In this document: positions 32,051-58,724 of the stretch, one piece after another
How positions within the stretch are numbered: position 1 is the stretch's first letter
Layout of the letters: each line of letters starts with the position of its first letter
From: Candidatus Hadarchaeales archaeon
GTDB lineage: Archaea; Hadarchaeota; Hadarchaeia; Hadarchaeales; Hadarchaeaceae
Reading direction: 5' to 3'
Assembly (NCBI GenBank): GCA_038872135.1
Contig: JAVZGN010000002.1
Coordinates: forward strand, 41,368 to 105,367
Length of the DNA: 64,000 nt
Program-made: the position numbers and the translations under genes
Notes under the pieces: model-generated
Database searches by the model: none
Told to the model about the DNA's origin: nothing
Seen by the model: only the letters and a program-made list of their open reading frames with translations

Positions 32051-32689
32051 TTATTCCTGCTCCCGTTTCAAAGCTTTTGCCACTTCCTCCACAGTTTTCG
32101 CCGTCACTGCCGCCAGCTTCCTTTCAAGGCTGTCAACAAACCTGCTCGCCGGAGCCCCAAGCTGCCAGAGATCGACATAGGCCTGAACTATTGGAACCAC
32201 ACCATTCTCGCTCATCGCCCTCAAGTGCTCGTCCTGTTCTAGCACAAAGATGTTTCTCTTTTTTGCTCGGCTCGGGCGGAACTTCCTCTCAACCAACTCT
32301 GAGTTTGCGTAGACGAAAACCTGGGAGTATTCTGCTGGTGTTACACCAAAAGTGAACCTGTAGGCGGAATAAGCGGTGAGCTGACCGATTTTTCTCAGCT
32401 CCTCCTCAATTTTCTCGACCTTGGCCGGCGAAAATGTCGTGTATCTGATATCCTTGCCAAGCTCTCTCGTGGCCGCCCAGTAGAGGAGGAGCCGCTTCGG
32501 GTCGACAAGCCTGAAGCCTAGGGGTCGCCTCTCAACTGCCCCTATCTGTTCAAACTTTATGATGATTGGATTAACTGTCCCCAGCGAGAGGGAGCAGGTT
32601 TTAGCGATGCTCTTCTGGTTGAAAAACCTTATGCCCTGGGAGTAGTACCTATGGAGAATTTCTCTCATCACACGGTCGATTTTTCTCAT
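32051..32689 (-). CDS. winged-HTH domain protein (putative transcriptional regulator)
   Basis: 212 aa. N-terminal HTH-like KSIAKTCSLSLGTVNPIIIKFEQIGAV. Divergently transcribed from the giant surface-protein gene. Confidence 0.45.
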   Translation of the reverse strand: MRKIDRVMREILHRYYSQGIRFFNQKSIAKTCSLSLGTVNPIIIKFEQIGAVERRPLGFRLVDPKRLLLYWAATRELGKDIRYTTFSPAKVEKIEEELRKIGQLTAYSAYRFTFGVTPAEYSQVFVYANSELVERKFRPSRAKKRNIFVLEQDEHLRAMSENGVVPIVQAYVDLWQLGAPASRFVDSLERKLAAVTAKTVEEVAKALKREQE

Positions 32690-32804: not shown

Positions 32805-35800
32805 ATGGTGGCCACCATAGGCAAATTTAGAGATGGGGATTGGCCCCCTGCCAACTATTCTGGGACAGTTGAAGACAGGCGGGGGGCCCACTCTCCCCAA
32901 TCCCGAATCACTAATGCTAAATTAAATGACGTTCCTTTATCTGAAAAAGCCCTTTCTATATCCATGGTGATTTTAATTCTCCTCTCAACATTTTCCCCAA
33001 TGCTTCATCTGCCGCTGGCTTCTGCCGGAAGTCTAGTCGATAATTCAACGGAAAACTTTGCTCTGGGAGTCCACGAGAACACAGAAAACATCGCAAATAG
33101 GATAAGGCTCAAATCTGGGTACACTTCCGGCCAGTTCACCTCTCAGATTTTCGATGCTGGCGTCTGGGCCCATTGGGAGACCATGAACTGGGTGGAGAAC
33201 GAGCCATTCCTACTTATCCAAGAGAATGACGATGTGGGGGCCGAGCCGGAAACTCTGGCTGACGGAAGTTTGAGAAGAGGAGAGATCCTAGGCGGTTCGA
33301 TCACAGATGTGAGGGTGTTGGACGGAGTTTATGAAAACATTGGGGAGAACACCGAGGACAACTGTCTGAATTGGGAACACAAGATCGAGAACATTACCTT
33401 CGGCTTTGAGAACTATGTGTTGAAGATCAGGGGATACACTGGAGGGGATTATGAGAATGTAGGCATTTACATCTGGGAAAATCAAGGAGCAACATGGGGG
33501 TGGAGGTTTATCGACAATTTAACCTCCACCGAAAAGACAATCGAGTGGACAATTCCCAGAACTTCCATAGAAAATTACTTAGTCAGCGGCGCTATTTTAA
33601 TCAGATATTTCGAAAACAACACCGATGCCACTCAGACTTGGGTTGTCGTCGATCTCTGCATCCTCTCTGGGGAGAACAGGATTTTTTCAGAAGTGAAGAT
33701 TCAGGTTAGGGTTAGCTCAGACAACGTGGTGTGGACTGGGTGGGCTGGCCCAAGCGGAGACGACACAACATTTTTCACTTCTTCCCCGGCAAATCTCACA
33801 CCAATTCTCGACAGAAGATATATCCAGTACAGAGTTTACTTCACCAGTCCCTCTCCATCCCTCAGCGGAGGAGATGGGCCAACTTTCGGTGAGGTGGTGA
33901 TAAACTACTCCCCGGTCAGCCCACCATCTCTTCAATCGCCCTCCAATGGCTCCTGGACAAACGACAACACCCCAACATTTGATTGGAGTGATGTAGAGGA
34001 TGCCACAGAATATCATCTTCTGGTGGACAACGACTCCAACTTTTCATCCCCAGAGATAAATGTCTTAGTGGCCTCAAGCCAATTCACCTCAGCCACCGAG
34101 CTGCCAGATGCAACATACTACTGGAAGGTCAGAGCAAAAGTTGGCAGCGACCTCTCAACCGCCTTCTCCGCACCCTGGACGGTCAACATCGCCACAGCTC
34201 CACCGACCCCACCATCTCTCATCTCGCCGGACAACGATGTTACCCTCTTCGTCGACCAGCCACTCTTCAGATGGACCATCTCAACTGGCGTGGGTGCAAT
34301 TACCTACTGGCTTGTCATAGACAATGATCAGGATTTCTCCTCCCCGATCTACAACAAAACTGGAATCTCGGAGAACTCTCATGTAATTGAAAACAAACTT
34401 CCGGAGAACTTCACTCCCTACTACTGGAAGGTTGCCGCAGTGGACAACATCGGAAACCTGAGCTGGTCTGAGTGGAGGAAGTTTGAACTGAAGGTTTTCC
34501 CGTCTTCAGTTGTCGGCCAGATCTCTCCCTACTGGCAAACAGCGCCTGTAAGCATCTCAGTGACGGCAAGTGACAACGATGGAACAATTGAAAATGTCGA
34601 GCTGTGGTACAGGTACTCGGTGGACAACTCTGAGTGGGGCCCGTGGACCTTTTATGAAAACCGCTCCTCCCCGCCCTACTCCTTTACCTTCAACTTCCCA
34701 AATGGCCAGGGCCTTTATGAGTTTTACTCGATAGCCTGGGACTCTCGCGGGAACCGGGAAAATACCCCGCCGACCCCGGACACTGCCTGTGGATTTGACA
34801 ACGCTGCCCCGCCCGCCCCAACTCTGATTCAGCCGGAAAACGATGCTGTGATCGAAACACGGAAACCAACTTTCCGGTGGACCTCTGTGACCGATCTCTC
34901 CGGCGTCACCTACAATTTGATTGTGGATAACGAAAATACTCTAGCTCCCCCACATATTTACTTTAAGACAGGAATAACGGAAAACTCTCACACAACAGAA
35001 AACTCTCTCGACATTGGGGTATATTGGTGGAAGATTGTAGCGAGGGATGCTGTGGGAAATGAAAATTCTGAGAATGTTTTTATCTTCACGCTTAGACTCT
35101 GGAACAACGTTGAGAGATGGTCTGGGGTGATAAAAACAATTTCTGGGTGGATGACAGCCGAAGTTTGGTCTGTAACAATAAATGCACCTTATGGTGTTTA
35201 TGGATATCTGCTTGTAGAAGAATGGTCGGCTGTTGTTAATGCTCCACCACCTGTTTTCACAATTGTAGAGAGCTGGACTACCACTGTTGCTAGTGAAATC
35301 TCTGAATGGAAAGTTGTGGAATCATGGACGGCCAGCATCGGGAGTGGTGGGGGATGGATGCTAGCAGAGAGTTGGATGAGTACAGTGACGGCTCTCCCGC
35401 ATATTGGGTGGTCGCAGGTTGAAACCTGGAGTTTCACAGCGGTAACACTTGCAAGATGGGAACTCGTAGAGGGATGGAATGCTTCAATCACGGCTGCTGC
35501 GTATCTCGGCTGGCCGCAGGTAGAAATGTGGTCGGTGACAGTAGATGCCCTCCCCTATGTTGAATGGGTGCAAGCTGAGATCTGGGCGGAAACATTGACA
35601 ACCTCAGCCCAATGGTTTGTATGTGAGAGCTTCGCTGCGGATATCGTCGCTAATGTGGTCTCGGGATGGACATTTGTGGAAACTTGGACCCCCACCCTAA
35701 CCTCGGTAGTGTTGAGTGGATGGACACTGGACGAAAGCTGGATTGCTACGATTACCGCGGAGATCCTTCAACCGGTTCTCCTCCTGCCCCTAGACGGGGA

Positions 35801-38800
35801 GAACACCAACAACACAAACCCAACTTTCGACTGGGAGGACAACACCCTCCCGATAGACAACTTCGAGATTCAGATAGACGATGACCAGGACTTCTCGCCC
35901 CCGCTTGTGAGATGGGAAAACACTGGGGCGACGAGCCAGTACAGCCCCGGCTTCCTTCCTGATAACCTCTACTGGTGGAGGGTTAGGATGTGGAGGGGAG
36001 GGGTGCCGGGGGCCTGGGCTCAGAGAACTGTAAGAGTTGATACACTGCCACCAGAGAAACCATCTCTCCTCTCCCCCCTAGATGGAGAAAACGAAAATGA
36101 CAGCGCACCTAATCTCCGGTGGAGCGCCCCGCCCGAGAACTCCTTCCCGCTCACTTATTTTGTCCAAATCTCCAACTCCAAATACTTCGAGCCGGAAAAC
36201 ATTGCCACAAGCGCTTGGGTGATGGAAGAGAACTGGGAGGTGCCACCGGTGCTTCAGGAGAATGTATGGTACTGGTGGAGGGTGCTTGTGAAAGACAATG
36301 CTGGAAACACAGGGGACTATTCATCTGCCAGAAAATTCAAGATAGACACCATAGCACCGCCACCGCCCACCGTCATCTGGCCGGAGAACGACGGGTGGAC
36401 GACTACCCTGCCGAACCTAGACTGGGCGCCGGTGGTTGAAAATTCCCTCCCGGTGGTCTACTTCGGAGAAATTTCACTTTTCCCAGACTTCTCCGGCAGC
36501 CCGCTCAGAACCATTTCAACGCTGGACGACAACTGGAGCGTTTCACCGGAACTCTCAGAGGGCACATACTTCTGGAGGCTTAAGGTCAGGGACAATGCAG
36601 GGAACTTGGGAAGCTGGTCGCAGGGATTTGTCTTCAAAGTTGACAACACGCCACCAACCGCACCACAGCCACCCTTCACGCCACCAAACAACGGCTCAGC
36701 GCCCACTGGGTTGGTTCAATTCCAGTGGGCGGCGGCCTCCGACAGTGGCTCGGGCGTTGCAAAATACGCGATTCAGATAGATGATGAACCTAACTTCAAC
36801 CCACCGCTTGTGCATGAAAATGACAACGTTGTTGGAACTGCATACTCTTGCCTACTTGAATTTCCGAAGACATATTACTGGAAGGTAAAAGCCATTGATA
36901 ACGTTGGCAACGAAGGGGAGTGGTCTGAGACCCTCAGTTTCTTTGCCACCACCGTCTGGAGGTCCATTGAGAGCTGGACGGGCACAATAGCTACCTCTGC
37001 CGCCTATCAACAGGCCGAGTCTTGGGTAGCCACCATCATAACTGTTGCTCAGTGGACGCCAATTGAATTTTGTGTAGGAACGATCGCCACCAGCGCTTCC
37101 TGGAAGTCTGTTGAGAGCTGGACGGCAACAATAACCACTACAGCCACATGGCAGTTTACTGAAACATGGAGTGGTATAATTGCTACCGCAGCTGCTTGGC
37201 GGTTTGCTGAGACATGGGCTGGTACAATTGCTACTGCTGCTCAGTGGCAGCTAGTTGAATCATGGCAGGTAACCATTACAACATCGGCTCAGTGGCAGGT
37301 TGTCGAGAGTTGGACTGGAACGATAACGACTTCTGCTTCATGGCAGCAGGTTGAATCGTGGACTGCCACAATCGCTACTGCGGCCGTCTGGCAGGTTGTT
37401 GAATCCTGGATATGCACGATAAAGGTTGGTGGAGAATGGAAACTAGCAGAAAGCTGGTCCGTTAATATTGCCCCGCCTGCCGACTGGAACTACATTGAAA
37501 CTTGGGCGGCAAAAATTATCGCTATCATTCCCGCTCCAATCCCAGTTTCCCCGCGTAATGGAGAGAACAAAAACACGCTTCCAACCCTCCGCTGGGACAA
37601 CCTTCTCCCTGCAGACAACTTCCAGCTCCAGATAGACAACAACCCAGACTTTTCCTCACCAGAAAACGACCTTACAGTCTTTGAGAACTTCTACACACCG
37701 CCAGCCCTCCAAGACAACCTCTGGTACTGGAGAGTTAGGACATTCAGGAACAACGAGAACTCTGCTTGGTCCACTGTGTGGAAGTTCAGGATCGACAGGC
37801 TTGCTCCTGGAAAACCTGTGCTCGTTTCACCGAGCGATGGGGAGAACATCAACGACAACACTCCACTCTTCCGCTGGCAGGCCCCACCAGAAAACTCCTT
37901 CCCGCTCGTCTACACCATCCAGATATCCACAACTTCAACATTCGCTCCCGGAACATACAACGAGTTCGCCGTTACCTCTTACGAGCAGGAAGTGGGCTGG
38001 ATGGTTCCGCAAGAAAACCCCTTGGCCGACAACATCTACTACTGGAGGGTAAAGGCAAGAGACAACGCAGGCAACGAGGGAGCATTCTCTACACCCAGAA
38101 AGTTCAGGGTTGACACTGTTTCGCCAGTCATTACCCTCATCTCGCCGGCAAACGGTGAAACCGTCAGCTCGAGACCAACTCTGAGCTGGTCCCTCGTTTA
38201 TGCCGAAAATACCTTGCCCGTCGTCTATAACGCTTTGATCTCTGACACCAGCACCTTCGAATTCAGCTATGAAAATGTGAAAATAACCGAGAACTCATAC
38301 ACCACCCAGCCACTCGACGAAAGCGTTGGAACATATTACTGGAAGGTTTGCGCATGGGACAATGCAGGAAACTGGAGCGGATGGTCCGAGACGAGGTGGT
38401 TCACAGTCAGAACTGCGTGGAGACAGGCTGAGAGCTGGAACCTCATGCTGACTACTTCTAGCCAGTGGAATCTGGCTGAAAGCTGGTCTGCCGCTGCTAC
38501 GACTTCGGCCGAGTGGAGACAAGTTGAAGCATGGGGTACAGTGCTCAGTACAACTGCTAAGTGGTCGCAGGTTGAAACATGGCAAGCAACAATGGTCGCT
38601 TCTGCTAGCTGGCAACAGGTTGATGGCTGGGCTGTAACTCTAATAACCGCCGCAAACTGGCTCCTCGCTGAAACATGGCAGGGGATTGCAACGACTACCG
38701 CAAAGTGGTTCTCAACAGAATCTTGGACAGGGGCAGTAGCCACTGTCTCTATCTGGCAAACTATAGAGAACTGGTGGGCTATGGTAACTGCTCCAGTTTA

Positions 38801-41800
38801 TCATGGATGGATTAACGCTGAAAGTTGGAGCGGATACGTATCGTCTGGGGGTGGCTGGGTCCCCGCCGAATTCTGGAGCGCAACTATCGAAGGATGGGCT
38901 TTTTGGAAGATTGTTGAAAGCTGGTCAGACACGATAAACGCTAGCGCAGGTTGGAAAACCACTGAAACATGGCAAGTTCAAATATACTCGCCAATCCCAG
39001 CACCTGTTCTCATCTTCCCGCCAGATGGCTATAACTTCAGCCCAAGTGTCGGAGAGCTTGTGCTTAAGTGGGACAACTCGCAGCCGGCAGACAACTTTGA
39101 GATTCAAATAGACAACGATTTCGACTTTTCTTCCCCAGAAGTAGACGATTTCACCTCTACCGAAAACTTTGTGGTCCCGTCCCTGCCTGACAACCTCTAC
39201 TGGTGGAGAGTAAGGACCTTCAGAACTGGCGAGAATTCTCAGTGGTCCGAGGTTTGGAGGTTCCGCATCGATAACATTCCCCCAGCTGTTCCTTCCCTCC
39301 TCGCTCCTTCAGAAGGGGAGAACATCAACGATAACACTCCGCTTCTTAGGTGGCAGGCCCCGCCCGAGAACTCCTTCCCGCTCAGATATAGGGTTCAGGT
39401 TGCTACCGACAAATTCTTCACAAACATTGTGAGGGAGGCTCTCTGGACGGTCACGGCGGAGAACTGGGAGATCCCGGCCGAAAACTCGCTGCCAGACAAC
39501 ATGTACTACTGGAGAGTCGCGGCAAAAGATAACGCGGGCAACTACAGCATGTTCTCCTCCTATAGAAGCTTCAGGGTCGACACCCTCAAGCCCGCGGTTC
39601 CATCTCTCACTTCTCCACCCCATGGAGCTTGGATCGCCTTCCCATCTCTCACGTGGAGCAAAGTAACCGATATCTCTCTCCCGCTTCTCTATAACCTTCA
39701 GATAGCCTATGACAACGACTTCTCCCATCTCGTTGTGAACGTGGAGCTTCTGGATAACTCCTGGAGCGGGCCACTGGATGAGGGGTTATACTGGTGGAAA
39801 GTTCAGGCGAAAGATGGAGCCGGCAACCTGAGCGGATGGTCGGAAAACCGGAAGTTCATCGTTGACAACGCCCCGCCGACAAAGCCGGTTCTCTCTACAC
39901 CTGAAAACAGCACAGATGTGAATATAGGGACAATAACATTTGGATGGCAGGCTTCTGATCCTGGAGCTGGAATTTCAAAATACTGGATTCAGATAGATAA
40001 TGAACCTGACTTTGATAACACCTTTTTCGTGCACGAAAATCAGATGGTCACAGAAAATACCTATCAGTACATCATCTCAGTGAGCGGAAGATATTATTGG
40101 AGGGTAAGGGCAATAGACGGGGCTGGAAACATCGGTGAATGGTCGGACAACTGGAACTTCTTCGTATATGGCTGGAGCTCCATTGAAAGCTGGATGGCAA
40201 TGATCAGTGGGCCGAGCCAGTGGAGAAATGTTGAGAGCTGGAATGCAACTATCAAAACTAGGGCTTATATCTGGGAAAAGCTGGAGAACTGGAGCGCCAG
40301 CATTCAGGCCCCATTTTTGGCAGGGTGGAGTTTTGTGGAAAGCTGGCAGGTAGAATTCATTTCCGTTACAGTATCTTGGAGAGGTGTTGAAAGCTGGAGA
40401 GCGATTATAACTGGAAGAGTGATTGCTCCGGTACTTCTCTCCCCCTCGAATGGCCTGAACACATCTCAGAACCCACTCACATTCAGGTGGGAGAATGTCC
40501 ATCTCGCTGACAACTACAGGATCCAGATAGATAACAAGTCCCCGGTGGTTGCTTACGAAAATGACAATGTGGGGGCCGAGCCGGAAACCCTGGTTGACGG
40601 AAGCTTGAGAAGAGGAGAGATCCTAGGCGGCTCGATCACAGATGTAATGGTTCTGGACGGAGTTTATGAAAATATTGGAGAGAACACCGAGGACAACTGT
40701 CTGAATTGGGAACACAAGATCGAGAACATTACCTCCGGCTTTGAGAACTATGTGTTGAAAATTAAGGGATACACTGAAGGAGACAATGAAAACATCTTTG
40801 TGTACATCTGGGAGAATGACTTTGGGACTTGGAGATGGCGAGAAATTGGAACCATCACCTCAAATGAAACAACAATCGTCTGGGAAATGAAATACACAAA
40901 CATCGAGAAATATTTGATGGATGGCTCGATTTATGTCAGATATCTTGAAAACACTCCAGACTTGGTGCAAACGGTTCTTCACATAGATCTCTGCGTGCTG
41001 ATGGAAAATCTCGAGAATCTGACTCCACCATTTTTAGTTGACGCAACGAGCACTGACAACTTCTACACCTACACATTCCCCGAGAATGGGAGATACTGGT
41101 GGAGAGTAATGGCAATGGTCCAGGGGATTGTCGGAGATTGGTCAAACATCTGGACGGTTCGAGCCGATACTGTTGCTCCACAGCCGCCAATCCTGATATC
41201 CCCAATCCACCATGAAAATGTTAATGATACTACTCCACTTCTCCGCTGGCAGGCCCCGCCCGAGAATTCTCTTCCCGTGAAATTCTTTGTTCAGGTAGCA
41301 ACCGATCCAACATTCAATACTATCATTAGAGAAAACTGGGTTGTTGGAGAGCAATGGGAGGTGTATCCGCCACTACAGGAAAATGTTTACTACTGGATGG
41401 TGCTTGCGGTTGACAATGCAGGAAATTCCAGTCCTCCCTCTCCAACCTGGGAGTTTAGGGTTGACATAACATCTCCCGCCACGCCTGAACCCAAAGCCCC
41501 CCGTGATGGAGAAAATCTGAATGACAACACCCCAGAACTAGTGTGGACTAGTGTTTGGGATGATTCTCGGCCAGTAGTCTATCGCATTCAAGTAGCTTAT
41601 GATGAGGCATTCCAGTTTATGGTTCCTGGATGCGATGTTTATGTCTATGAAAACACTTGGACAACTCCCGAGCTTCCCAGCGAGAGAGTGTATCGATGGA
41701 GAGTCAAGGCCATAGACAATGCTGGAAATGAAAGTGGATGGTCTCCAACTCAAAGATTCAGGTTCGACTGCAGCCCGCCACTCCCCCCATCTCTTATCTC

Positions 41801-44390
41801 CCCAATGCCTGGCGAAAATGTTGGTAGCTCGACTCCAACCTTCTCTTGGGCGGCCCCATTCGAAAACTCAACCCCGATAAAATACTATCTTTCCATCAGC
41901 GATAATGAAGACTTCCCATACGAGAACGAAAACTCTGGATGGATCTCCTCAACTTCTTGGATAGTACAATCTCCTCTCTCAGACGGCATCTGGTACTGGA
42001 GGGTGAAGGCAAGAGACAACGCCGGCAACGAGGGAGCATTCTCTACACCCAGAAAGTTCAGGGTTGATACGCTTCCACCCGAGAATGTTTCTCTGCTGGA
42101 GCCGGAAAATGGCACGACGGTAGGTGATAACACTCCACTGCTGAAGTGGTCTAGTGCGGTAGACAACTCCCTTCCGGTAAAGTATGTTGTGGTTGTAGCT
42201 CGCGACCCCGCCTTCGCAGATAATGTCATCTCCTCTCCTTGGCTCGACAATGAAAATTGGGAAATCCCACTGGGGCTCTTGGACAACACATACTATTGGA
42301 AGGTGAGGGCGAGAGATAACGCAGGAAACATCTTTGAAACGCCATCTTGGTGGTTCATCGTTGAAAATGCCTCGCCCTTCATGCCACAGCTCGTCAGGCC
42401 TGCAAACGGAGCATGGGAAAACGACAACACCCCGACCTTCAAATGGGAAAACGCATGGGACATTTCACAACCAGTGGAATATTTTGTGTGGCTCTCCACC
42501 GACAACCTCTTTGAAAACATTGTACTCACCAGTGGCTGGGTGGAGAACGAGAACTGGACGGTTCCGGCGGAAAATTCCCTCTCGGATAATGTAAAATATT
42601 ACTGGAGGGTTCAGGCAAAAGACAACACCGGAAAGCTCAGCGAGAATTCTGAGACATGGTGGTTCATCGTCGACGTGGTGGTTCCGCCAAGGATAAACCT
42701 CTGGTCGCCGCCTAACGACGCCGTCTTCGAGAAGCTCACGATCACCTTCACTTGGGAAAGTGTGACCGATAATTCTGGAGTAACCTATCACATAGAAATA
42801 GATAATGAGCCCAGCTTCTCTAGCCCACTTGTGGATAGTAGATATACCACCAACGCCGTCCTGCCAAGTTACACCTTCCAAAAAACAGGGTGGTACTACT
42901 GGAGGGTAAGGACGATAGACGGAGCTGGAAATATCGGTGAATGGTCGGACAACTGGGTGATTTTGATTGGTAGATGGACTTTTCTAGAGCGCTGGAACGA
43001 GATAACAATCATTAGCCAGCCCACGGCGTGGAAATGGATAGAATCATGGGGATTAACTATAAAGGCTCCAAGCGGCTGGACCTTGGTCGAGAGCTGGCAG
43101 GCCACAGCCGTCGGAGCAATCCGATGGAGAGTTGCCGAAAGCTGGTCACTGAGCATTAGGACTAGGCCCTACTACTGGACTAAGGTTGAGGCATGGGAGA
43201 ATGTGGCAACATTGAGAGGATACCCGATTCCAGTTTGGAGATTTGCTGAAAACTGGGGAGGGATATCAATCATTTCTCTCCCACGTGAATTTAGATTTGT
43301 TGAAACTTTCAATGCTCAGATAAGGGCTCCGGCGGAAATAATTGACTTCCTCACCGCCATTGAGCGGCCACCGCCAAAGTGGGAGGAAATAGAGAAGATG
43401 CATGCGACCTTTAGGGCAAAAGAGCCGCTGCCAGGAATCCCTGTGACCGTCGGAAGGGTGATGCCCGGAACTACTTCAACGGCAGATTTTTCCGCCTTCG
43501 ACATCCCAGTGATCAAGATTGAAATAACTCTTAAGCCAGACGCCCCTGCCACAGAGATCGCTCCGATCGTCCTCTCAGCCAAGGCCGTTGACAACATCCC
43601 AGGAATATCTGGTCCTCCGGGCGAAACATACAAATTCTTGGAATTTGGTGTGGATGGGATACCACCGGAATACATTCAGAACTTCAGGGTGCGGTTCAGG
43701 GTTGAAAAGAGGTGGCTTCTCGGGATGGATGAGAAAACTCTCGAGGTGGTGAGGCTGAGCGGCAATTGGGTGCGAGTACCTTTTGAACTAATTAGCTCAA
43801 CTGAAGATTACAACATATATGAAATGGCTGGCGATGTCTATTCGACCTTTGCGATAATAGCGCAGAAAAAGACGCTACCACTTCAAGCCCCGCCGGTCGT
43901 CTTGATTCCAACTGGAGAAGCCCCATCCCCAAGTCCCATTGGATTATTTGTGCTTCTCGGCATAGGCGGGATAGCAGTGGGGCTGATGTTCTATCGTTCT
44001 GTCGCGAAAATAAGAATTGGCGGACTTGAGAAAGAGCTTGAGAAGCTCCAAAAGGCGCCTCCGACAAAAAAGGTGGCGGTGAGAGGTGTAAGGATAACGC
44101 TTCCCAAAGTGGAAAAAATGGAGATTAAGAGGATTGCCAGAGCGATTTGGGGTCCACCGCCAATCCCGAGAGTTCCTCCGCCTGAAAGACGCCTGGCCCC
44201 GCCAGAAATCGCGGCTGTGGAAACTCTCGAGAAGTTCATCGCTGAAAGGAGAAAGAAGGCGCCGAAAATAGCGGTTGAAAAAATTGAAGAGGTGAGAAAA
44301 AAGCTGAGCAAGGAGGAGATTGAGGTTTTCAAGACCCTAGAAAAATTTGTTGGAAAGAGAAGGAAAGCCATGAAAAGAGGAGGTGGATGA
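32805..44390 (+). CDS. giant cell-surface protein (3,861 aa): signal-like N-terminus, unknown ~150-aa domain (x2), ~35-40 fibronectin-III-like modules, five blocks of a 16-aa Trp-periodic repeat, C-terminal TM anchor and basic tail
   Basis: Uninterrupted 11,586-nt ORF. Hydrophobic segment MVILILLSTFSPMLHLPLASAG (alternative ATG at 32964). Fn3-like modules end in ...YYW[RK]V[RK]A.DNAGN.S.WS....F.VDT.[AP]P. Many N-x-S/T sequons. C-terminal TM IGLFVLLGIGGIAVGLMFY followed by a K/R-rich tail. Confidence 0.8.
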   Translation: MVATIGKFRDGDWPPANYSGTVEDRRGAHSPQSRITNAKLNDVPLSEKALSISMVILILLSTFSPMLHLPLASAGSLVDNSTENFALGVHENTENIANRIRLKSGYTSGQFTSQIFDAGVWAHWETMNWVENEPFLLIQENDDVGAEPETLADGSLRRGEILGGSITDVRVLDGVYENIGENTEDNCLNWEHKIENITFGFENYVLKIRGYTGGDYENVGIYIWENQGATWGWRFIDNLTSTEKTIEWTIPRTSIENYLVSGAILIRYFENNTDATQTWVVVDLCILSGENRIFSEVKIQVRVSSDNVVWTGWAGPSGDDTTFFTSSPANLTPILDRRYIQYRVYFTSPSPSLSGGDGPTFGEVVINYSPVSPPSLQSPSNGSWTNDNTPTFDWSDVEDATEYHLLVDNDSNFSSPEINVLVASSQFTSATELPDATYYWKVRAKVGSDLSTAFSAPWTVNIATAPPTPPSLISPDNDVTLFVDQPLFRWTISTGVGAITYWLVIDNDQDFSSPIYNKTGISENSHVIENKLPENFTPYYWKVAAVDNIGNLSWSEWRKFELKVFPSSVVGQISPYWQTAPVSISVTASDNDGTIENVELWYRYSVDNSEWGPWTFYENRSSPPYSFTFNFPNGQGLYEFYSIAWDSRGNRENTPPTPDTACGFDNAAPPAPTLIQPENDAVIETRKPTFRWTSVTDLSGVTYNLIVDNENTLAPPHIYFKTGITENSHTTENSLDIGVYWWKIVARDAVGNENSENVFIFTLRLWNNVERWSGVIKTISGWMTAEVWSVTINAPYGVYGYLLVEEWSAVVNAPPPVFTIVESWTTTVASEISEWKVVESWTASIGSGGGWMLAESWMSTVTALPHIGWSQVETWSFTAVTLARWELVEGWNASITAAAYLGWPQVEMWSVTVDALPYVEWVQAEIWAETLTTSAQWFVCESFAADIVANVVSGWTFVETWTPTLTSVVLSGWTLDESWIATITAEILQPVLLLPLDGENTNNTNPTFDWEDNTLPIDNFEIQIDDDQDFSPPLVRWENTGATSQYSPGFLPDNLYWWRVRMWRGGVPGAWAQRTVRVDTLPPEKPSLLSPLDGENENDSAPNLRWSAPPENSFPLTYFVQISNSKYFEPENIATSAWVMEENWEVPPVLQENVWYWWRVLVKDNAGNTGDYSSARKFKIDTIAPPPPTVIWPENDGWTTTLPNLDWAPVVENSLPVVYFGEISLFPDFSGSPLRTISTLDDNWSVSPELSEGTYFWRLKVRDNAGNLGSWSQGFVFKVDNTPPTAPQPPFTPPNNGSAPTGLVQFQWAAASDSGSGVAKYAIQIDDEPNFNPPLVHENDNVVGTAYSCLLEFPKTYYWKVKAIDNVGNEGEWSETLSFFATTVWRSIESWTGTIATSAAYQQAESWVATIITVAQWTPIEFCVGTIATSASWKSVESWTATITTTATWQFTETWSGIIATAAAWRFAETWAGTIATAAQWQLVESWQVTITTSAQWQVVESWTGTITTSASWQQVESWTATIATAAVWQVVESWICTIKVGGEWKLAESWSVNIAPPADWNYIETWAAKIIAIIPAPIPVSPRNGENKNTLPTLRWDNLLPADNFQLQIDNNPDFSSPENDLTVFENFYTPPALQDNLWYWRVRTFRNNENSAWSTVWKFRIDRLAPGKPVLVSPSDGENINDNTPLFRWQAPPENSFPLVYTIQISTTSTFAPGTYNEFAVTSYEQEVGWMVPQENPLADNIYYWRVKARDNAGNEGAFSTPRKFRVDTVSPVITLISPANGETVSSRPTLSWSLVYAENTLPVVYNALISDTSTFEFSYENVKITENSYTTQPLDESVGTYYWKVCAWDNAGNWSGWSETRWFTVRTAWRQAESWNLMLTTSSQWNLAESWSAAATTSAEWRQVEAWGTVLSTTAKWSQVETWQATMVASASWQQVDGWAVTLITAANWLLAETWQGIATTTAKWFSTESWTGAVATVSIWQTIENWWAMVTAPVYHGWINAESWSGYVSSGGGWVPAEFWSATIEGWAFWKIVESWSDTINASAGWKTTETWQVQIYSPIPAPVLIFPPDGYNFSPSVGELVLKWDNSQPADNFEIQIDNDFDFSSPEVDDFTSTENFVVPSLPDNLYWWRVRTFRTGENSQWSEVWRFRIDNIPPAVPSLLAPSEGENINDNTPLLRWQAPPENSFPLRYRVQVATDKFFTNIVREALWTVTAENWEIPAENSLPDNMYYWRVAAKDNAGNYSMFSSYRSFRVDTLKPAVPSLTSPPHGAWIAFPSLTWSKVTDISLPLLYNLQIAYDNDFSHLVVNVELLDNSWSGPLDEGLYWWKVQAKDGAGNLSGWSENRKFIVDNAPPTKPVLSTPENSTDVNIGTITFGWQASDPGAGISKYWIQIDNEPDFDNTFFVHENQMVTENTYQYIISVSGRYYWRVRAIDGAGNIGEWSDNWNFFVYGWSSIESWMAMISGPSQWRNVESWNATIKTRAYIWEKLENWSASIQAPFLAGWSFVESWQVEFISVTVSWRGVESWRAIITGRVIAPVLLSPSNGLNTSQNPLTFRWENVHLADNYRIQIDNKSPVVAYENDNVGAEPETLVDGSLRRGEILGGSITDVMVLDGVYENIGENTEDNCLNWEHKIENITSGFENYVLKIKGYTEGDNENIFVYIWENDFGTWRWREIGTITSNETTIVWEMKYTNIEKYLMDGSIYVRYLENTPDLVQTVLHIDLCVLMENLENLTPPFLVDATSTDNFYTYTFPENGRYWWRVMAMVQGIVGDWSNIWTVRADTVAPQPPILISPIHHENVNDTTPLLRWQAPPENSLPVKFFVQVATDPTFNTIIRENWVVGEQWEVYPPLQENVYYWMVLAVDNAGNSSPPSPTWEFRVDITSPATPEPKAPRDGENLNDNTPELVWTSVWDDSRPVVYRIQVAYDEAFQFMVPGCDVYVYENTWTTPELPSERVYRWRVKAIDNAGNESGWSPTQRFRFDCSPPLPPSLISPMPGENVGSSTPTFSWAAPFENSTPIKYYLSISDNEDFPYENENSGWISSTSWIVQSPLSDGIWYWRVKARDNAGNEGAFSTPRKFRVDTLPPENVSLLEPENGTTVGDNTPLLKWSSAVDNSLPVKYVVVVARDPAFADNVISSPWLDNENWEIPLGLLDNTYYWKVRARDNAGNIFETPSWWFIVENASPFMPQLVRPANGAWENDNTPTFKWENAWDISQPVEYFVWLSTDNLFENIVLTSGWVENENWTVPAENSLSDNVKYYWRVQAKDNTGKLSENSETWWFIVDVVVPPRINLWSPPNDAVFEKLTITFTWESVTDNSGVTYHIEIDNEPSFSSPLVDSRYTTNAVLPSYTFQKTGWYYWRVRTIDGAGNIGEWSDNWVILIGRWTFLERWNEITIISQPTAWKWIESWGLTIKAPSGWTLVESWQATAVGAIRWRVAESWSLSIRTRPYYWTKVEAWENVATLRGYPIPVWRFAENWGGISIISLPREFRFVETFNAQIRAPAEIIDFLTAIERPPPKWEEIEKMHATFRAKEPLPGIPVTVGRVMPGTTSTADFSAFDIPVIKIEITLKPDAPATEIAPIVLSAKAVDNIPGISGPPGETYKFLEFGVDGIPPEYIQNFRVRFRVEKRWLLGMDEKTLEVVRLSGNWVRVPFELISSTEDYNIYEMAGDVYSTFAIIAQKKTLPLQAPPVVLIPTGEAPSPSPIGLFVLLGIGGIAVGLMFYRSVAKIRIGGLEKELEKLQKAPPTKKVAVRGVRITLPKVEKMEIKRIARAIWGPPPIPRVPPPERRLAPPEIAAVETLEKFIAERRKKAPKIAVEKIEEVRKKLSKEEIEVFKTLEKFVGKRRKAMKRGGG
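33222..33680 (+). repeat. copy 1 of intragenic duplication (unknown ~150-aa domain of the giant protein)
   Basis: About 90% nucleotide identity over the first ~230 nt with 40556..41012, including a 55-nt exact run gagaacaccgaggacaactgtctgaattgggaacacaagatcgagaacattacct. Confidence 0.8.
35095..35770 (+). repeat. W16 block 1: ~14 tandem 16-codon (48-nt) Trp-periodic repeats inside the giant ORF
   Basis: Protein repeats such as VESWTTTVASEISEWK / VESWTASIGSGGGWML / AESWMSTVTALPHIGWSQ... with Trp at i and i+6 in each 16-residue unit. Ends at ...ILQPVLLLP before the next Fn3. Confidence 0.75.
36950..37535 (+). repeat. W16 block 2: ~12 tandem 16-codon Trp-periodic repeats (cleanest block)
   Basis: WQFTETWSGIIATAAA / WRFAETWAGTIATAAQ / WQLVESWQVTITTSAQ / WQVVESWTGTITTSAS / WQQVESWTATIATAAV / WQVVESWICTIKVGGE / WKLAESWSVNIAPPAD... 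The 48-nt periodicity is visible in the DNA (tggcag...gaatc/gtgg...). Confidence 0.85.
38410..39000 (+). repeat. W16 block 3: ~12 tandem Trp-periodic repeats
   Basis: WRQAESWNLMLTTSSQ / WNLAESWSAAATTSAE / WRQVEAWGTVLSTTAK / WSQVETWQATMVASAS / WQQVDGWAVTLITAAN ... Ends at ...YSPIPAPV. Confidence 0.8.
40170..40430 (+). repeat. W16 block 4: ~5 tandem Trp-periodic repeats
   Basis: WSSIESWMAMISGPSQ / WRNVESWNATIKTRAY / IWEKLENWSASIQAPFLAG / WSFVESWQVEFISVTVS / WRGVESWRAIITGRVIAP. Confidence 0.75.
40556..41012 (+). repeat. copy 2 of intragenic duplication (unknown ~150-aa domain)
   Basis: See 33222..33680. Protein NDNVGAEPETLVDGSLRRGEILGGSITDVMVLDGVYENIGENTEDNCLNWEHKIENITSGFENYVLKIKGYTEGD... versus the N-terminal copy. 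Confidence 0.8.
42970..43345 (+). repeat. W16 block 5: ~8 degenerate Trp-periodic repeats
   Basis: WTFLERWNEITIISQPTA / WKWIESWGLTIKAPSG / WTLVESWQATAVGAIR / WRVAESWSLSIRTRPYY / WTKVEAWENVATLRGYPIPV / WRFAENWGGISIISLP... Confidence 0.7.
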
Positions 44391-45033
44391 GGTGGAGCCA
44401 GAATTTCGCCTGACGAGGGCGGGAAAAATTAAATGGAAGCTGAAGAAAAACTGGAAAGTTATCGCGGCAATTATTCTATCTATATCAATAGCGGTGGGAG
44501 TTTATCTCTCAACCCTCCAGCCATCCAAGATTTCCAGAAGAGCTAAGATTACTGCTCCCTATGTTGAATTTGAAAGTAGAAGGGGGTTCTTTGCCGTGCG
44601 TAAATACCAGGAGTCTGGAATCGAAAACATTTACATCGTTAAATTTCCCAATTTTGACCCGACCAGGGATGCGATGTCTCAGCTGGAAAATGTTGATGCA
44701 ATCATTTCGAGTAGCGGGCAAACTGTGGATGTTTCGGACAATGCCCTTTTTGCTATAGTTGTGGCCGTTAGAGCAAAGGCTCCAGACAACATCGCATATG
44801 TGGTCAAAGAGAATATGTGGGTCTGGCTCGGGGCTAGTGGAGCATTCACCATCCCGAACTCTCTGGCTCCAGACTGGAAAGAATATGTTTTTGAGAGTTC
44901 TGGATATGGAACTGCGAATGGTTACATGAGAGTAAATGTGATCTGGGACAACGATGGCGAGGGATATATACTGTACGCAGGGCAACATCTCTTCATAGAC
45001 AACATCGTCTTGAAATTTTTCAGTCCAAGATAG
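44383..45033 (+). CDS. single-pass membrane protein (N-terminal TM anchor, extracellular beta-rich domain); paralogue of 58128..58724
   Basis: 216 aa. TM WKVIAAIILSISIAVGVYLSTL. Shared motifs with the paralogue: ENIYI[VM]K, [SP]GQTVD[VI], YVFE[SN]SGYGTANGY[MV]R[VI]N. Start overlaps the giant ORF stop by 8 nt. Confidence 0.6.
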   Translation: MDEVEPEFRLTRAGKIKWKLKKNWKVIAAIILSISIAVGVYLSTLQPSKISRRAKITAPYVEFESRRGFFAVRKYQESGIENIYIVKFPNFDPTRDAMSQLENVDAIISSSGQTVDVSDNALFAIVVAVRAKAPDNIAYVVKENMWVWLGASGAFTIPNSLAPDWKEYVFESSGYGTANGYMRVNVIWDNDGEGYILYAGQHLFIDNIVLKFFSPR

Positions 45034-45081: not shown

Positions 45082-45879
45082 TTGGCGGACCGAAAGATGA
45101 AACAACCTTCAATACCTGAACTTTTGAGACCGAAGCGAGAAAGGGGAATAGAAATAAAACCGAAACATGGGAGAGTGGTTGGGCTTTTTTCCTGCAAGGG
45201 AGGTGTTGGAAAGACTACCACCACGGCAAATCTCAGTCTCGCCCTTTTGGAAAAACTTGGAACGAATATCTTGGCTTTCGACGCAAACATCGGTGCCCCT
45301 AACCTTGGACTGCATTTTGGCGAGCTAACTCCAAAAATAACAGTTCATGATGTCATCTCCGCGGAGCTTCCGGTGGAAAATGCTATTCTCACAGTTCAGG
45401 GGTTGAAGATGATTTTGGGATCGATAGCCTTTGAAGATGAAGTTCACCTGGTAGATCTCAGGGAGCTGATAAACCCCTTGAGAAAGATGTTCAAACTTGT
45501 CATCGTCGACTCTGCCCCGGGGATAGGAAGCGAGGTGGTCGCCGCCCTGAAGGCCTGTGACGAGATAATAATTGTCACGGACCCATATGTCCCAACGATC
45601 GCAAGCACATTGAAGACATTTCGGGCAGCAGAAAAATATAAGGTTCCAATCTTCGGTGTTGTTGTGAACAGGGTGGCGGGGGACCCGTTTGAGCTTCCGA
45701 TCAAAGAAATAAGAAAGGCATTAGGGTGGCCTGTGGTGGCGGTGGTCCCGGAAGACAAGAAAGTGAGGGAAGCAACTGCTGCCGGCATCCCTGTAGTAAA
45801 ATATGCGCCGAAGTCGCCGGCCGCCAAAGAGTTTGTTATGCTGGCGAACACTGTGTATGAACATCTCAGAAAGGGGTAG
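45082..45879 (+). CDS. MinD/ParA-family P-loop ATPase (archaeal MinD-like)
   Basis: 265 aa. Deviant Walker A LFSCKGGVGKTTT, Walker B/VIVDSAPG, standard MinD-like layout. Confidence 0.85.
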   Translation: MADRKMKQPSIPELLRPKRERGIEIKPKHGRVVGLFSCKGGVGKTTTTANLSLALLEKLGTNILAFDANIGAPNLGLHFGELTPKITVHDVISAELPVENAILTVQGLKMILGSIAFEDEVHLVDLRELINPLRKMFKLVIVDSAPGIGSEVVAALKACDEIIIVTDPYVPTIASTLKTFRAAEKYKVPIFGVVVNRVAGDPFELPIKEIRKALGWPVVAVVPEDKKVREATAAGIPVVKYAPKSPAAKEFVMLANTVYEHLRKG

Positions 45880-54130: not shown

Positions 54131-55414
54131 GTGGAAAAACAAGAAATAATTCCAAGGGATATTTTAACAAAATTCGAGAAATTGCTAGAAAGACGAGAGG
54201 CTCTTGCGATAAAAGGTCCCCGACAATCGGGGAAGACAACTCTTTTGAAAATCTTGGCGAGAAGACTTGAGAACGCAGGCAAAGTCGTTTTTCTGAATTT
54301 CGAGGACCCCGATGTGCTCGAAGCCTTTGAGAGGGACCCCAAGGGTTATGTGCGGAGCTTCATGCTCGGTCCCGAAAGGCATTACTTCTTGATGGACGAG
54401 TTCCACTACATCAGTGAACCTGGAAAGAAACTCAAGTTACTCTACGACACCTTCGAGAATGCGAAGTTCATCGTCACCGGTAGTTCCTCCCTAGAACTCG
54501 GTGGGGCGATGGCGAAATTTTTGGTGGGTCGAGTGTTTTTCTTTGAGTTGCTTCCCTTCAGCTTCCACGAGTTCCTAGTGGCAAAAAACGAGAGATTGGC
54601 TAAGATTTATGAGAAAAAGAACGAAGCCATCAAAGCCTTCATGCTGGGAGAAGAAGTAGAACTGGAAGAAGATATCTTCGTGAAAGAGCTTGAGCCCCTT
54701 TTCCTTGAGTACCTCACTTACGGCGGCTATCCGGCTGTGGTCTTGGCTAACGATGCGGAGACAAAGCGAATGATCCTGAAAGGCATATACGATACATACA
54801 TTTCCAAAGATGTGATTGAGTTTTTGAAATTCACCGACGCGTTCAAGTACAGAGATACTATCAGGATCCTAGCAGCGTCGGTTGGAGGATTGCTAAACTA
54901 CCAAGCGGTGGGCTCGGCGGTCCAAAGCTACTTCAAGGAGCTGAAGCGGATCCTCTCGATTCTCTCCGAAACGTACGTGATAATCTTGCTCCGACCATTC
55001 TCAAGGAACCCGAGAACCGAGCTAAGGAAAAGCCCAAAGGTCTATTTCTTTGACTTGGGGCTCAGGAACTATGTGCTAAACAATTTTAACCCACTCGACA
55101 GGAGGGCTGATGCCGGAGCGATGGTTGAAAACTTCGTGCTGCTGGAGCTAATGCGTGCCTTCCCAGCTGAGTCCTTAAATTACTGGCGGACGATAGCAAA
55201 AGCCGAGGTAGACTTCGTGCTGAGGGTCGGGGAAAAATTGATACCGATAGAGGCCAAATATCAAAGTTTCGCGGAACCAAAAATCTCAAGAAGCCTCCGG
55301 AGCTTCATCCACACTTACAGCCCAGAGCGCGCTTTGGTTGTGACCCGCGATAGGTGGGCGAGGAGTGAAATTGATGGAACAAAAGTGCTTTTCGCTCCCG
55401 CCTGTTACATTTAA
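54131..55414 (+). CDS. AAA+ ATPase with C-terminal DUF4143 domain (AAA_14/DUF4143 family)
   Basis: 427 aa. Walker A GPRQSGKTTLLK, Walker B FLMDEFHY, C-terminal DUF4143-like region (WRT...EVDFVL). Confidence 0.85.
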   Translation: MEKQEIIPRDILTKFEKLLERREALAIKGPRQSGKTTLLKILARRLENAGKVVFLNFEDPDVLEAFERDPKGYVRSFMLGPERHYFLMDEFHYISEPGKKLKLLYDTFENAKFIVTGSSSLELGGAMAKFLVGRVFFFELLPFSFHEFLVAKNERLAKIYEKKNEAIKAFMLGEEVELEEDIFVKELEPLFLEYLTYGGYPAVVLANDAETKRMILKGIYDTYISKDVIEFLKFTDAFKYRDTIRILAASVGGLLNYQAVGSAVQSYFKELKRILSILSETYVIILLRPFSRNPRTELRKSPKVYFFDLGLRNYVLNNFNPLDRRADAGAMVENFVLLELMRAFPAESLNYWRTIAKAEVDFVLRVGEKLIPIEAKYQSFAEPKISRSLRSFIHTYSPERALVVTRDRWARSEIDGTKVLFAPACYI

Positions 55415-58125: not shown

Positions 58126-58127
58126 GA

Positions 58128-58724
58128 TTAGCCCCATAGCCATAGACTTACAGTAAATCCTGCATAAGAGCCAGCGGGCAACTTCCATCCCGTTCCATTA
58201 TTGTCGAACACTGCATTTATCCTCACATATCCGTTGGCCGTCCCATACCCGGAGTTTTCAAAAACATATTCAATCAAGTCGGTTGAGTTATCATGCCAGC
58301 TGAAGCCTGATGTCCATTGCAACTCAACCTTTACATTTTCTTTTGAAGCGTAGGCTGGTGGATCTCCATCCAAATTTATTGCATCTGCCCTCACAGCCGG
58401 CACCACATCGAAGGGGGTCTCATAGGGGATATCAACAGTCTGACCGGGCCCAGTTATTACATCTAGACAATAGTTTGTATTTCCCGCATATTGACCAAGC
58501 CAGCTATTTTTATCATATCCAGAACCATGCTTCATTATATAGATGTTTTCAAACCCATCGGTGTTTTCTGAGATAAAAGAGTATCCACTTCCGCTCCAGA
58601 CGGCAACGAGTCTCCACCGAGGTCCCTGAACAATCGATTCTTTGGCAGGGAGATATGAAGTGATAAGTAAAACAGCGATTACCAAAGTAGCTAAAATTCC
58701 TGCAGCCTGCCATCTTCCAATCAT
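58128..58724 (-). CDS. single-pass membrane protein; paralogue of 44383..45033
   Basis: 198 aa. N-terminal TM WQAAGILATLVIAVLLITSYL. Shares ENIYIMK, GPGQTVDI and YVFENSGYGTANGYVRINAVFDNNG with the other copy. Stop is immediately adjacent to the start of the downstream surface-protein gene. Confidence 0.6.
   Translation of the reverse strand: MIGRWQAAGILATLVIAVLLITSYLPAKESIVQGPRWRLVAVWSGSGYSFISENTDGFENIYIMKHGSGYDKNSWLGQYAGNTNYCLDVITGPGQTVDIPYETPFDVVPAVRADAINLDGDPPAYASKENVKVELQWTSGFSWHDNSTDLIEYVFENSGYGTANGYVRINAVFDNNGTGWKLPAGSYAGFTVSLWLWG

Follow-up and report, generated by a model that had tools for sequence, protein, structure and literature searches.

Described solenoids and the W16 repeat

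Choline-binding repeats (CW_binding_1) and the clostridial CROPs are tandem beta repeats with units of about 20 residues that are rich in aromatics; they form elongated superhelical binding modules. MpAFP, region IV of the Marinomonas primoryensis giant adhesin MpIBP (3p4g), is built from coils of 19 residues, which bind Ca2+ and contain a Gly/Asn/Asp motif. The passenger beta-helices of Ag43, TibA and pertactin, as well as PbH1/NosD, possess wider, three-sided coils of about 19–25 residues. In the ice-nucleation proteins InaZ and PbINP (PF00818), the tandem units are 16 residues long (48-nt period), and in a published model each of them makes up one coil of a narrow beta-solenoid; the proteins are surface-exposed, and their long arrays carry an aromatic ladder (PMC10418271). 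This model is the precedent for a 16-residue coil.

The window, i.e. the whole stretch of 64,000 nucleotides from a Candidatus Hadarchaeales archaeon analyzed here, encodes a tryptophan-periodic repeat, W16, for which all of these features of the ice-nucleation repeats are found or predicted. There is, however, no sequence similarity: the ice-nucleation consensus AGYGSTQTAGEDSSLT has one Tyr, whereas W16 has two Trp and a Glu, and TxT is not conserved in the W16 family. Moreover, ice-nucleation proteins are gammaproteobacterial and contain a single array, whereas W16 appears specific to Hadarchaeota and occurs in several blocks between FN3/Ig-like domains. MpAFP has no sequence match to W16 either, and its coils differ from the 16-residue Trp/Glu coils predicted here; MpIBP is a bacterial RTX/T1SS protein, whereas the W16 protein is archaeal, contains a PGF-pre-PGF domain and is anchored by a TM helix. 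Like CW_binding_1 and CROPs, W16 consists of short aromatic-rich tandem beta repeats in surface proteins; the former, however, are bacterial, have a known ligand and form beta-hairpin solenoids whose repeats of about 20 residues bear a GW/YY signature, and W16 lacks a Pfam match. The residues conserved in Ag43, TibA, pertactin and PbH1/NosD differ from those of W16, and none of these families gave a Pfam match on the W16 blocks.

The repeat and its gene in the window

The initial annotation had reported five blocks of W16. All of them exist, at essentially the positions given there, and their 49 units lie in frame 1 of a single 3861-aa ORF (Table 1). The unit pattern in the window is W-x-x-[VAI]-E-[ST]-W-x-x-T-[IV]-x-[TA]-x-A-x. 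Among the strict 16-mer units, W1, E5 and W7 are each found in 30 of 31, position 4 is V, A or I, and T10 (17/31), I11 (21/31), T13 (18/31) and A15 (20/31) are frequent. The two tryptophans, which had been called invariant, are nearly but not strictly so, the exceptions including Y1401, C1423, F818 and F943; Glu5 matches both in its degree of conservation. A hand-made DNA pattern spanning three consecutive units and fixing W1, E5 and W7 only gave 13 matches in the window and none in 100 dinucleotide shuffles, and a tri-unit HMM matched the ORF with E = 8e-176.

The mean pairwise identity between units is 49% for nucleotides and 37% for amino acids. A comparison of synonymous and nonsynonymous differences between units, as proposed in the initial annotation, gave a saturated pS of 0.745 and a pN of 0.44. 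In agreement with the earlier view of diverged units under selection, the repeat is old and constrained and not a recent product of slippage. Tandem Repeats Finder detected only 5.5 copies (37149-37410), and the repeat alignments contain no conserved stretch of 7–10 columns. Word-indexed protein searches that started from B2, from a 21-row profile or from the head domain gave at most one fragment. In practical terms, W16 is a cautionary case: repeat finders working on DNA and protein searches by word index each failed to detect most of the family.

The ORF encodes an archaeal surface protein with an N-terminal signal or anchor segment, FN3/Ig-like domains, a PGF-pre-PGF domain, a TM helix and a basic tail. 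Pfam assigned Ig_Rha78A_N in 10 stretches and Big_13 in 6, in addition to fn3. The net charge is -214 for the ectodomain and +17 for the tail. The protein as a whole, though not the repeat, belongs to the PGF-pre-PGF surface proteins (TIGR04213), scoring above the curated cutoff. The N-terminal head domain has no match in Pfam or NCBIfam; its core (aa 130-287) is duplicated with 68% identity at aa 2575-2732 (40527-41000), and orthologues with about 50% identity occur at four other loci (P0021, P0010, L021, L049). Both flanks of the gene are conserved: the divergent HTH-like gene has counterparts with 48–62% identity at six loci (L085, L021, L010, L006, L077, L070), and tblastn found the small single-TM protein with 52% identity in L044 and with 38–39% in L070, L077, L037 and L061. 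The MinD-like ATPase matched TIGR01969 (minD_arch) with E 2.7e-55 and 187 bits, which is below the cutoff of 201.75.

Table 1. Coordinates of W16 blocks and associated features in the window
Feature	Position	Strand	Protein position	Remarks
HTH-like gene	32051..32689	-		divergently transcribed; weak HTH_Crp_2 match; conserved upstream neighbor
Giant surface-protein gene	32805..44390	+	3861 aa	single uninterrupted ORF; holds all five W16 blocks
N-terminal hydrophobic segment	32949..33020	+	aa 49-72	hydropathy; putative signal peptide or N-terminal anchor; followed by ...LASAGS
N-terminal head domain	33030..33944	+	aa 76-380	no family match
W16 block B1	35100-35774	+		13 units of uneven length (16-20 aa)
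W16 block B1, HMM domains			aa 768-989 of stop-to-stop ORF	ORF numbering 2 lower
W16 block B2	36957-37538	+		block of the original finding; 12 units, most regular; strictly 16 aa except last
W16 block B3	38418-39002	+		12 units
W16 block B4	40173-40430	+		5 units
W16 block B5	42975-43343	+		7 units; closest to membrane, then PGF-pre-PGF domain and TM helix
PGF-pre-PGF domain	43455..43862	+	aa ~3551-3686	NCBIfam TIGR04213, E 1e-11, 45.1 bits (cutoff 28)
C-terminal TM helix	43929..43994	+	aa 3709-3730	hydropathy; then Lys/Arg/Glu-rich cytoplasmic tail to 44387
Small single-TM protein gene	44383..45033	+		conserved neighbor; 8-nt overlap with stop of giant gene
Archaeal MinD-like P-loop ATPase gene	45082..45879	+		Pfam ParA/CbiA; recurrent neighbor of W16 genes
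Three degenerate W16 units	56707..56847	-	aa 448-494	in second surface protein, gene 55411-58188 (-)

Distribution and comparison with named families

Hadarchaeota are an uncultured, globally distributed phylum of subsurface and hot-spring archaea. An exhaustive profile search among 1.84 billion (1.84e9) representative proteins found only 182 carriers of W16 at E<=1e-3. All carriers bearing an organism name, which are a minority of the 182, are Hadarchaeota proteins titled "hypothetical" or "PGF-pre-PGF"; IMG names relatives 'PGF-pre-PGF domain-containing protein'. Scanning 185,579 species genomes with the DNA pattern yielded 86 stretches and, from these, 58 HMM-confirmed loci. Of the latter, 57 are archaeal, 52 being named Hadarchaeota or Hadesarchaea and distributed over about 28 MAGs; the sole bacterial locus (L042) is weak (E 3e-4). 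Viral contigs contained only 8 single chance matches to the DNA pattern, all HMM-negative. The locus nearest to the window shows about 70% nucleotide identity, and none is identical. On present evidence, which comes from these searches, W16 appears to be restricted to cell-surface proteins of the phylum Hadarchaeota. The initial annotation had not recognized it as a phylum-wide family.

The family consensus is W-Q-L-I-E-T-W-T-G-T-V-x-A-P-A-x. Among 1075 units of the relatives, variable polar residues occupy position 12 (E20 S16 Q12 R9), Ala predominates at position 13 (A13 in 53%) and Pro at position 14; T10 occurs in 58% of units. Thus, the Thr ladder, from which an analogy to ice- and surface-binding solenoids had been drawn, is local to the window and not conserved, which leaves the analogy unsupported. 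The spacing is 16 in 1075 of about 1700 unit pairs; unit lengths vary between 15 and 18 aa, with insertions and deletions falling in positions 13–16. Orthologous arrays differ by whole units, and their junctions to FN3-like domains are conserved. Arrays of relatives are frequently adjacent to the membrane anchor: of the 95 that possess a TM helix following their last array, 26 have a gap of at most 60 aa and 18 one of 60–160 aa between the two. The arrays are joined with many unrelated extracellular domains, namely Big_13, Beta_helix/NosD, DUF2341, LamG, LVIVD and propellers.

The sequence comparisons support the claim that the repeat is not a named one. The W16 blocks had no match in Pfam or NCBIfam at E<=10, phmmer and hmmsearch found none among PDB sequences below E 0.1, and the HMM search suggested in the initial annotation led to no already-named family. 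Pfam scans of 50 relatives placed nothing named over the arrays except DUF3499 (PF12005) below threshold; these are summed partial matches to profile positions ~34–64 in some relatives, with no single stretch passing, and the W16 blocks of the window do not match this family. Choline- or cell-wall-binding repeats (CW_binding_1, CW_binding_2) and SLH gave no profile match at E<=10. Right-handed parallel beta-helix families (Beta_helix PF13229, NosD PF05048, PbH1) did not match the W16 blocks, and in relatives Beta_helix and NosD match separate regions rather than the arrays. Neither a match to the curlin repeat profile nor a close fold match to curli or functional-amyloid repeats was observed. 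In the literature on Hadarchaeota surface proteins, PGF-pre-PGF, Trp-rich and 16-residue repeats we found no description of W16, and likewise no experimental work on Hadarchaeota envelopes. Absent from every curated family library, W16 marks dozens of the largest Hadarchaeota surface proteins, with several paralogues per genome. It can be used as an annotation handle for Hadarchaeota genomes, can help to recognize Hadarchaeota fragments in metagenomes, and suggests targets for structural work on the surface architecture of this phylum.

Predicted fold and proposed role

AlphaFold2 modeled one coil per unit, with a pLDDT of 75.6 for B2 and of 60–71 for B3, falling to about 50 at irregular units. 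The model of B2 is all-beta with essentially no residue under pLDDT 50; the structure prediction that the initial annotation had called for did not indicate disorder of this block. The best structural neighbor of the models is the ice-binding MpAFP (3p4g). Membership of W16 in the Ca2+-dependent MpAFP/RTX-type solenoids was rejected, as the period is 16 and not the 19 residues of MpAFP or the 9 of RTX repeats, the Gly/Asn/Asp motif is missing and no PDB sequence matched. Each unit of about 16 residues most likely corresponds to one coil of a narrow beta-solenoid. The beta-solenoid, one of the folds suggested in the initial annotation, is predicted with moderate confidence, given a pLDDT range of 60–83 and a program prone to over-call solenoids for repeats. 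If the prediction is true, few natural solenoids would be narrower than this 16-residue coil with its two Trp per turn, and W16 would add a non-ice-binding case to a coil so far modeled only for ice-nucleation proteins.

According to our best reading, W16 is a new lineage-specific beta-solenoid rod or stalk module, possibly with an exposed Trp-Glu-Trp stripe. Each block would form a stiff rod with about 4.8 Å per unit, which corresponds to about 6 nm for B2 or B3 and to about 24 nm summed over the protein. Strings of FN3/Ig-like domains would separate these rods, and the last rod (B5) would stand next to the PGF-pre-PGF domain and the membrane anchor, on their outer side; on the basis of this arrangement, the arrays would act as rigid spacers or stalks keeping the head and the Ig-like domains off the membrane. 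The short gaps to the TM helix in many relatives, the combination of arrays with diverse extracellular domains and their place beside a Kelch propeller in a second protein speak for a stalk; indels falling in positions 13–16 and length differences by whole units speak for the fold. Judging from the conservation pattern, the small or hydrophobic positions 4, 6, 11, 13 and 15 would fill a tight core, and Gly9 and Pro14 may mark turns. Glu5 and Trp7 would constitute a continuous exposed stripe of acid and aromatic side chains, with Trp1 at a corner and position 3 alongside; the stripe is a candidate site of lateral self-association or of binding to glycans. That W16 is at once a previously unnamed structural repeat family, confined to Hadarchaeota, folded as a solenoid and serving as a stalk, we regard as probable, if only just.

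Two nearly invariant Trp and an equally conserved Glu per coil exceed the needs of a passive spacer, which points to an added function in binding or assembly. A possible but less probable alternative is that this is the primary function: the Trp-Glu-Trp stripe would serve to bind a linear polymer of the envelope or of the environment, e.g. a glycan, or to zip solenoids laterally, comparable perhaps to the self-association of the Ag43/TibA type or to the Tyr-ladder dimer of ice-nucleation proteins. The arrays would then construct the Hadarchaeota envelope, dock onto it or bring about contacts between cells, which is compatible with a stalk. However, the Trp side chains could be core residues, and the length of the arrays varies freely between orthologues, which is more typical of spacers. 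The solenoid itself might be an AlphaFold2 artefact, the real fold being another beta architecture such as a beta-hairpin meander as in choline-binding-type repeats, with strand W1–W7, turn T8–G9 and strand T10–A13 stacked into a sheet or superhelix. For repeats, the program is known to produce confident but unrealistic solenoids (PMC11795689), the pLDDT is only moderate, and the conserved T-G-T at positions 8–10 could equally be a hairpin turn. We nevertheless consider an artefact unlikely: it arises with perfect repeats, whereas the units of W16 share only 37% identity, the same best structural neighbor was obtained for two independent blocks and alignments, and the flanking FN3 domains were modeled normally in the same run. 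Moreover, a hairpin meander predicts a structural period of 32 residues for identical faces, and none is seen.

An ice-binding or ice-nucleating, water-organizing solenoid is the reading to which we assign the least credence. In its favor, W16 shares the period of the ice-nucleation proteins (PMC10418271), its models match an ice-binding protein best, and some B2 units display T10-x-T12. In PF00818 terms, the shared period with one modeled coil per unit is an architectural likeness and not homology: neither the protein nor any block matches PF00818 (octapeptide/16-residue consensus AGYGSTxTAxxxSxLT) at E<=10, and the W16 profile aligned with four consensus units of ice-nucleation proteins at an hhalign probability of 0.01. 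A conserved TxT/SxT ladder does not exist across the family (positions 12, 13), and the record names of the carrier MAGs point to hot springs and deep mines as their origin. The known habitats of the lineage are the subsurface and geothermal sites, which also counts against a role in ice binding. It is hardly more plausible that the arrays are low-complexity disordered linkers or a recent expansion by DNA slippage. B2 and B3 are indeed rich in Thr and Ala; but the blocks contain about 10–13% Trp, conservation is strictly position-specific while synonymous sites are saturated, the family is conserved across the phylum, and the all-beta prediction for B2 speaks against disorder.

A MinD-like gene lies within the same <=8-kb stretch as the W16 ORF in about 21 of 54 W16 loci, mostly directly abutting. 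This association is observed; a functional link would be hypothetical. We rate as rather improbable a more far-reaching proposal, in which the arrays serve the Hadarchaeota envelope as a building or docking element peculiar to this phylum: double-Trp/Glu-laddered solenoids would zip laterally or clamp an envelope glycan, and would be deployed with the recurrently adjacent MinD-like ATPase and the small membrane protein as a dedicated placement system for giant fibers.

W16 also occurs in a second surface protein of the window. There, three degenerate units (WFQLAENWAATITTAL, WYTLAESRSATVTTTT and WFQMVESRSARITTPS; HMM E 1.3e-6) link a Kelch propeller to Big_1 domains.

W16 blocks in the window and their host proteins

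W16, a 16-residue tandem repeat with two tryptophans per unit (unit positions 1 to 16), occupies five blocks, B1 to B5, which lie essentially where the initial annotation had placed them. All are contained in one uninterrupted plus-strand ORF and comprise 13 + 12 + 12 + 5 + 7 = 49 units; the opposite-strand ORFs around this giant gene are short by-products. A tri-unit HMM matched the giant ORF with an E-value of 8e-176, and a DNA pattern of three units, specifying only W1, E5 and W7, gave 13 matches in the window versus 0 in 100 shuffles. Tandem Repeats Finder (TRF) detected 5.5 of the 49 units. The two tryptophans, initially described as invariant, are near-invariant, and E5 is kept equally well: each of the three residues is present in 30 of the 31 strictly 16-residue units of the window. 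Position 4 is V, A or I, position 11 is I, V or L, and position 15 is A. The units share 49% identity at the DNA and 37% at the protein level. Because synonymous differences are saturated (pS 0.745) and pN is lower (0.44), the arrays are old and constrained, as had been proposed.

Features of the giant gene, the second W16 protein and adjoining genes
Feature	Position	Strand	Remarks
Giant gene	32805-44390	+	3861 aa
N-terminal hydrophobic segment	aa 49-72		
Head domain	aa 76-380		no family match
FN3/Ig-like domains			Pfam: Ig_Rha78A_N (10 stretches), Big_13 (6), fn3
B1	35100-35774	+	13 units
B2	36957-37538	+	12 units
B3	38418-39002	+	12 units
B4	40173-40430	+	5 units
B5	42975-43343	+	7 units
PGF-pre-PGF domain	C-terminal		TIGR04213, E 1e-11, above cutoff
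TM helix	aa 3709-3730		followed by basic tail
Second surface protein	55411-58188	-	signal peptide, DUF2341, Kelch propeller, Big_1 domains, C-terminal TM helix
Three degenerate W16 units in second protein	aa 448-494, 56707-56847	-	tri-unit HMM
HTH-like gene, divergent, upstream of giant gene	32051-32689	-	weak HTH_Crp_2 match
Small single-TM protein gene	44383-45033	+	216 aa, no family match; overlaps giant stop codon by 8 nt
Archaeal MinD-like P-loop ATPase gene	45082-45879	+	TIGR01969, E 2.7e-55

The product of the giant gene is a membrane-anchored surface protein, with a net charge of -214 in the ectodomain and +17 in the tail. The core of its N-terminal head domain (aa 130-287; 33192-33665, +) is duplicated at aa 2575-2732 (40527-41000, +) with 68% identity; neither copy matched Pfam or NCBIfam, and the second was apparently inserted among the FN3-like domains. 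Orthologues of the head domain were found in two proteins of the profile search (P0021, P0010) and at two loci of the DNA-pattern scan (L021, L049). A 23-nt tandem repeat in the giant ORF (40862-40911; 2.2 copies, 78% match, TRF) is probably insignificant. In the second surface protein, three degenerate W16 units join the Kelch propeller to the Big_1 domains; W7 is replaced by arginine in two of them.

A Hadarchaeota repeat family

W16 is a family of the Hadarchaeota. When 1.84 billion representative proteins were searched exhaustively with the tri-unit profile (hmmsearch), 182 carriers passed E<=1e-3, of which 122 also passed 1e-10 and 62 passed 1e-30, the longest arrays among the 182 reaching 1058 aa. 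Practically all of the family escaped a word-indexed protein search, as did even the orthologues of the non-repetitive head domain. Scanning 185,579 species (one genome each) with the three-unit DNA pattern yielded 86 stretches, and all those with multiple matches belong to Hadesarchaea, Hadarchaeota or Hadarchaeum MAGs or to archaeal bins. The HMM confirmed 58 loci, 57 of them archaeal (52 named Hadarchaeota) and from about 28 MAGs; the sole non-archaeal locus is a weak match (E 3e-4) in a gammaproteobacterial MAG (L042). The other single bacterial matches were HMM-negative and due to chance, and all eight viral matches were likewise HMM-negative. Cluster look-ups returned only "hypothetical protein [Hadesarchaea archaeon]", "[Candidatus Hadarchaeales archaeon]" and "PGF-pre-PGF domain-containing protein". 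None of the representative genomes is identical to the window; the best match has about 70% nucleotide identity, and gene order is shared, so that the window most likely stems from a Hadarchaeota genome outside this set. Nearby genes for archaeal Nre and the primase large subunit mark the source as an archaeon.

The view that W16 resembles no known repeat held up: Pfam-A and NCBIfam gave no match to any block at E<=10, and PDB sequences contained no relative by phmmer or profile (best E-value 0.11). Membership by sequence in the ice-nucleation, MpAFP, PbH1, RTX, choline-binding or curli repeats was tested and rejected; for the 16-residue ice-nucleation consensus, hhalign gave a probability of 0.01. 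Full-text literature searches turned up no account of it. In 50 relatives, i.e. W16 proteins outside the window, Pfam never covered the arrays, and the sole signal consisted of summed, sub-threshold partial matches to DUF3499 (PF12005). On the arrays of P0003, P0029 and P0032 whole-protein scores reached 31 bits (cutoff 25), adding up many partial unit matches at profile positions ~34-64, of which no single stretch passes. Note that these sums could cause false annotation of the three proteins.

The family consensus, W-Q-L-[IVL]-E-[TS]-W-[TS]-G-T-[VIL]-x-[ATS]-P-[AVS]-x, was derived from 1075 strict units of the relatives, where unit spacings are 16 (1075), 17 (267), 15 (74) and 18 (63) residues; the extra residues of longer units sit in positions 13-16. 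Residues at position 12 vary and are polar, whereas Ala predominates at position 13 and Pro at position 14. The alternating Thr/Ile/Ala run, first taken as a feature of the repeat, is local to B2 and B3 and absent from this consensus. Alignment of FN3-W16-FN3 super-modules showed conserved junctions (start ...WSExFxFTxxxW, end ...APIPAPxLxSPxxGxN), the arrays differing by whole-unit insertions and deletions.

Long runs of near-identical units, in blocks of up to 1058 aa, occur in P0001, P0004, P0011 and P0015, the maximum being 36 strict units (WQLIETWTGTVEAPAx) in P0001. Such runs point to recent expansion or homogenisation of these arrays, in contrast to the old, diverged units of the window; expansion is therefore ongoing in some relatives. 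Such arrays are liable to mis-assembly in short-read MAGs.

Predicted fold and proposed role

Modelled alone with AF2 (192 aa, 21-row alignment), B2 reached a pLDDT of 75.6 and a pTM of 0.71, each unit forming one strand of ~13 residues and a 3-residue turn. B3 was modelled together with its native flanks (aa 1770-2165, 13-row alignment); pLDDT was 80-94 in these FN3-like flanks, 60-71 in the array and ~50 at irregular units. The anticipated solenoid was predicted at moderate confidence. AF2 is reported to over-predict confident solenoids on perfect repeats (PMC11795689); the W16 repeats are imperfect, and the two independent runs agree. On these models, a beta-solenoid with one coil per unit is somewhat favoured.

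The layout of the coil was deduced solely from hydrophobicity and conservation parity. A 16-residue coil needs small or aliphatic core residues, and positions 4, 6, 11, 13 and 15 would form this core. The chain is expected to turn at G9 and again in the region from P14 to position 16, and W1 would occupy a corner. The outer face would carry E5 and W7 next to position 3, so that the invariant glutamate would not lie buried without a partner for its charge. The ice-nucleation coil, also of 16 residues, and the solenoid of MpAFP, which stems from a giant Ig-rich adhesin, resemble W16 in its predicted architecture and are unrelated to it in sequence. W16 is a new, lineage-specific repeat family within a known architectural class, its fold and function being predictions; it is a solid find, of use in the study of archaeal envelopes and in classifying repeat proteins, and does not constitute a new principle.

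Most likely, W16 arrays act as a portable rigid spacer or stalk between unrelated extracellular modules and the membrane anchor, because they pair with unrelated modules (Big_13, Ig_Rha78A_N, Beta_helix/NosD, DUF2341, LamG, LVIVD, propellers, GH43-like), precede anchors, and link a propeller to Big_1 domains. In 95 relatives a TM helix follows the last array, at a distance of <=60 aa in 26 of them and of 60-160 aa in another 18; the second range roughly matches the length of one PGF-pre-PGF domain, and in the giant protein B5 is followed by this domain and then by the TM helix. With the 4.8 Å per coil of general solenoid geometry, B2 or B3 would form a rod of ~6 nm. Since the conservation of W1, E5 and W7 exceeds the needs of a spacer, a putative W/E stripe for lateral association or glycan binding is a serious candidate for a second function compatible with the spacer. 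Analogies are the self-association of Ag43/TibA and the dimer that ice-nucleation proteins form through a Tyr ladder (PMC10418271). Ice binding, for which TxT-like ladders had originally been cited, is very unlikely and was rejected, because the Thr ladder is not conserved family-wide, homology to ice-nucleation repeats is lacking, and the names of the carrier MAGs refer to hot springs and deep mines.

Recurrent neighbour genes

In ~21 of 54 W16 loci, a MinD-like gene shares a stretch of <=8 kb with the W16 ORF, mostly directly abutting it. It adjoins the 3' end of the W16 gene, co-directional or convergent and often with a gap of 10-50 nt (loci L004, L006, L010, L018, L034, L037, L039, L044, L047, L055, L061, L066, L068, L070, L072, L078, L079, L083 and L086). 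By identity the copies form three classes, they occur in two orientations, and some genomes have two paralogues; the recurrent adjacency suggests a candidate functional link. The overlap of the small TM gene with the giant stop codon suggests translational coupling, and this gene is kept beside W16 and MinD-like genes at L044 (52% identity), L070, L077, L037 and L061. The HTH-like gene, a candidate regulator, is conserved upstream of orthologous giant genes at six loci (48-62% identity).
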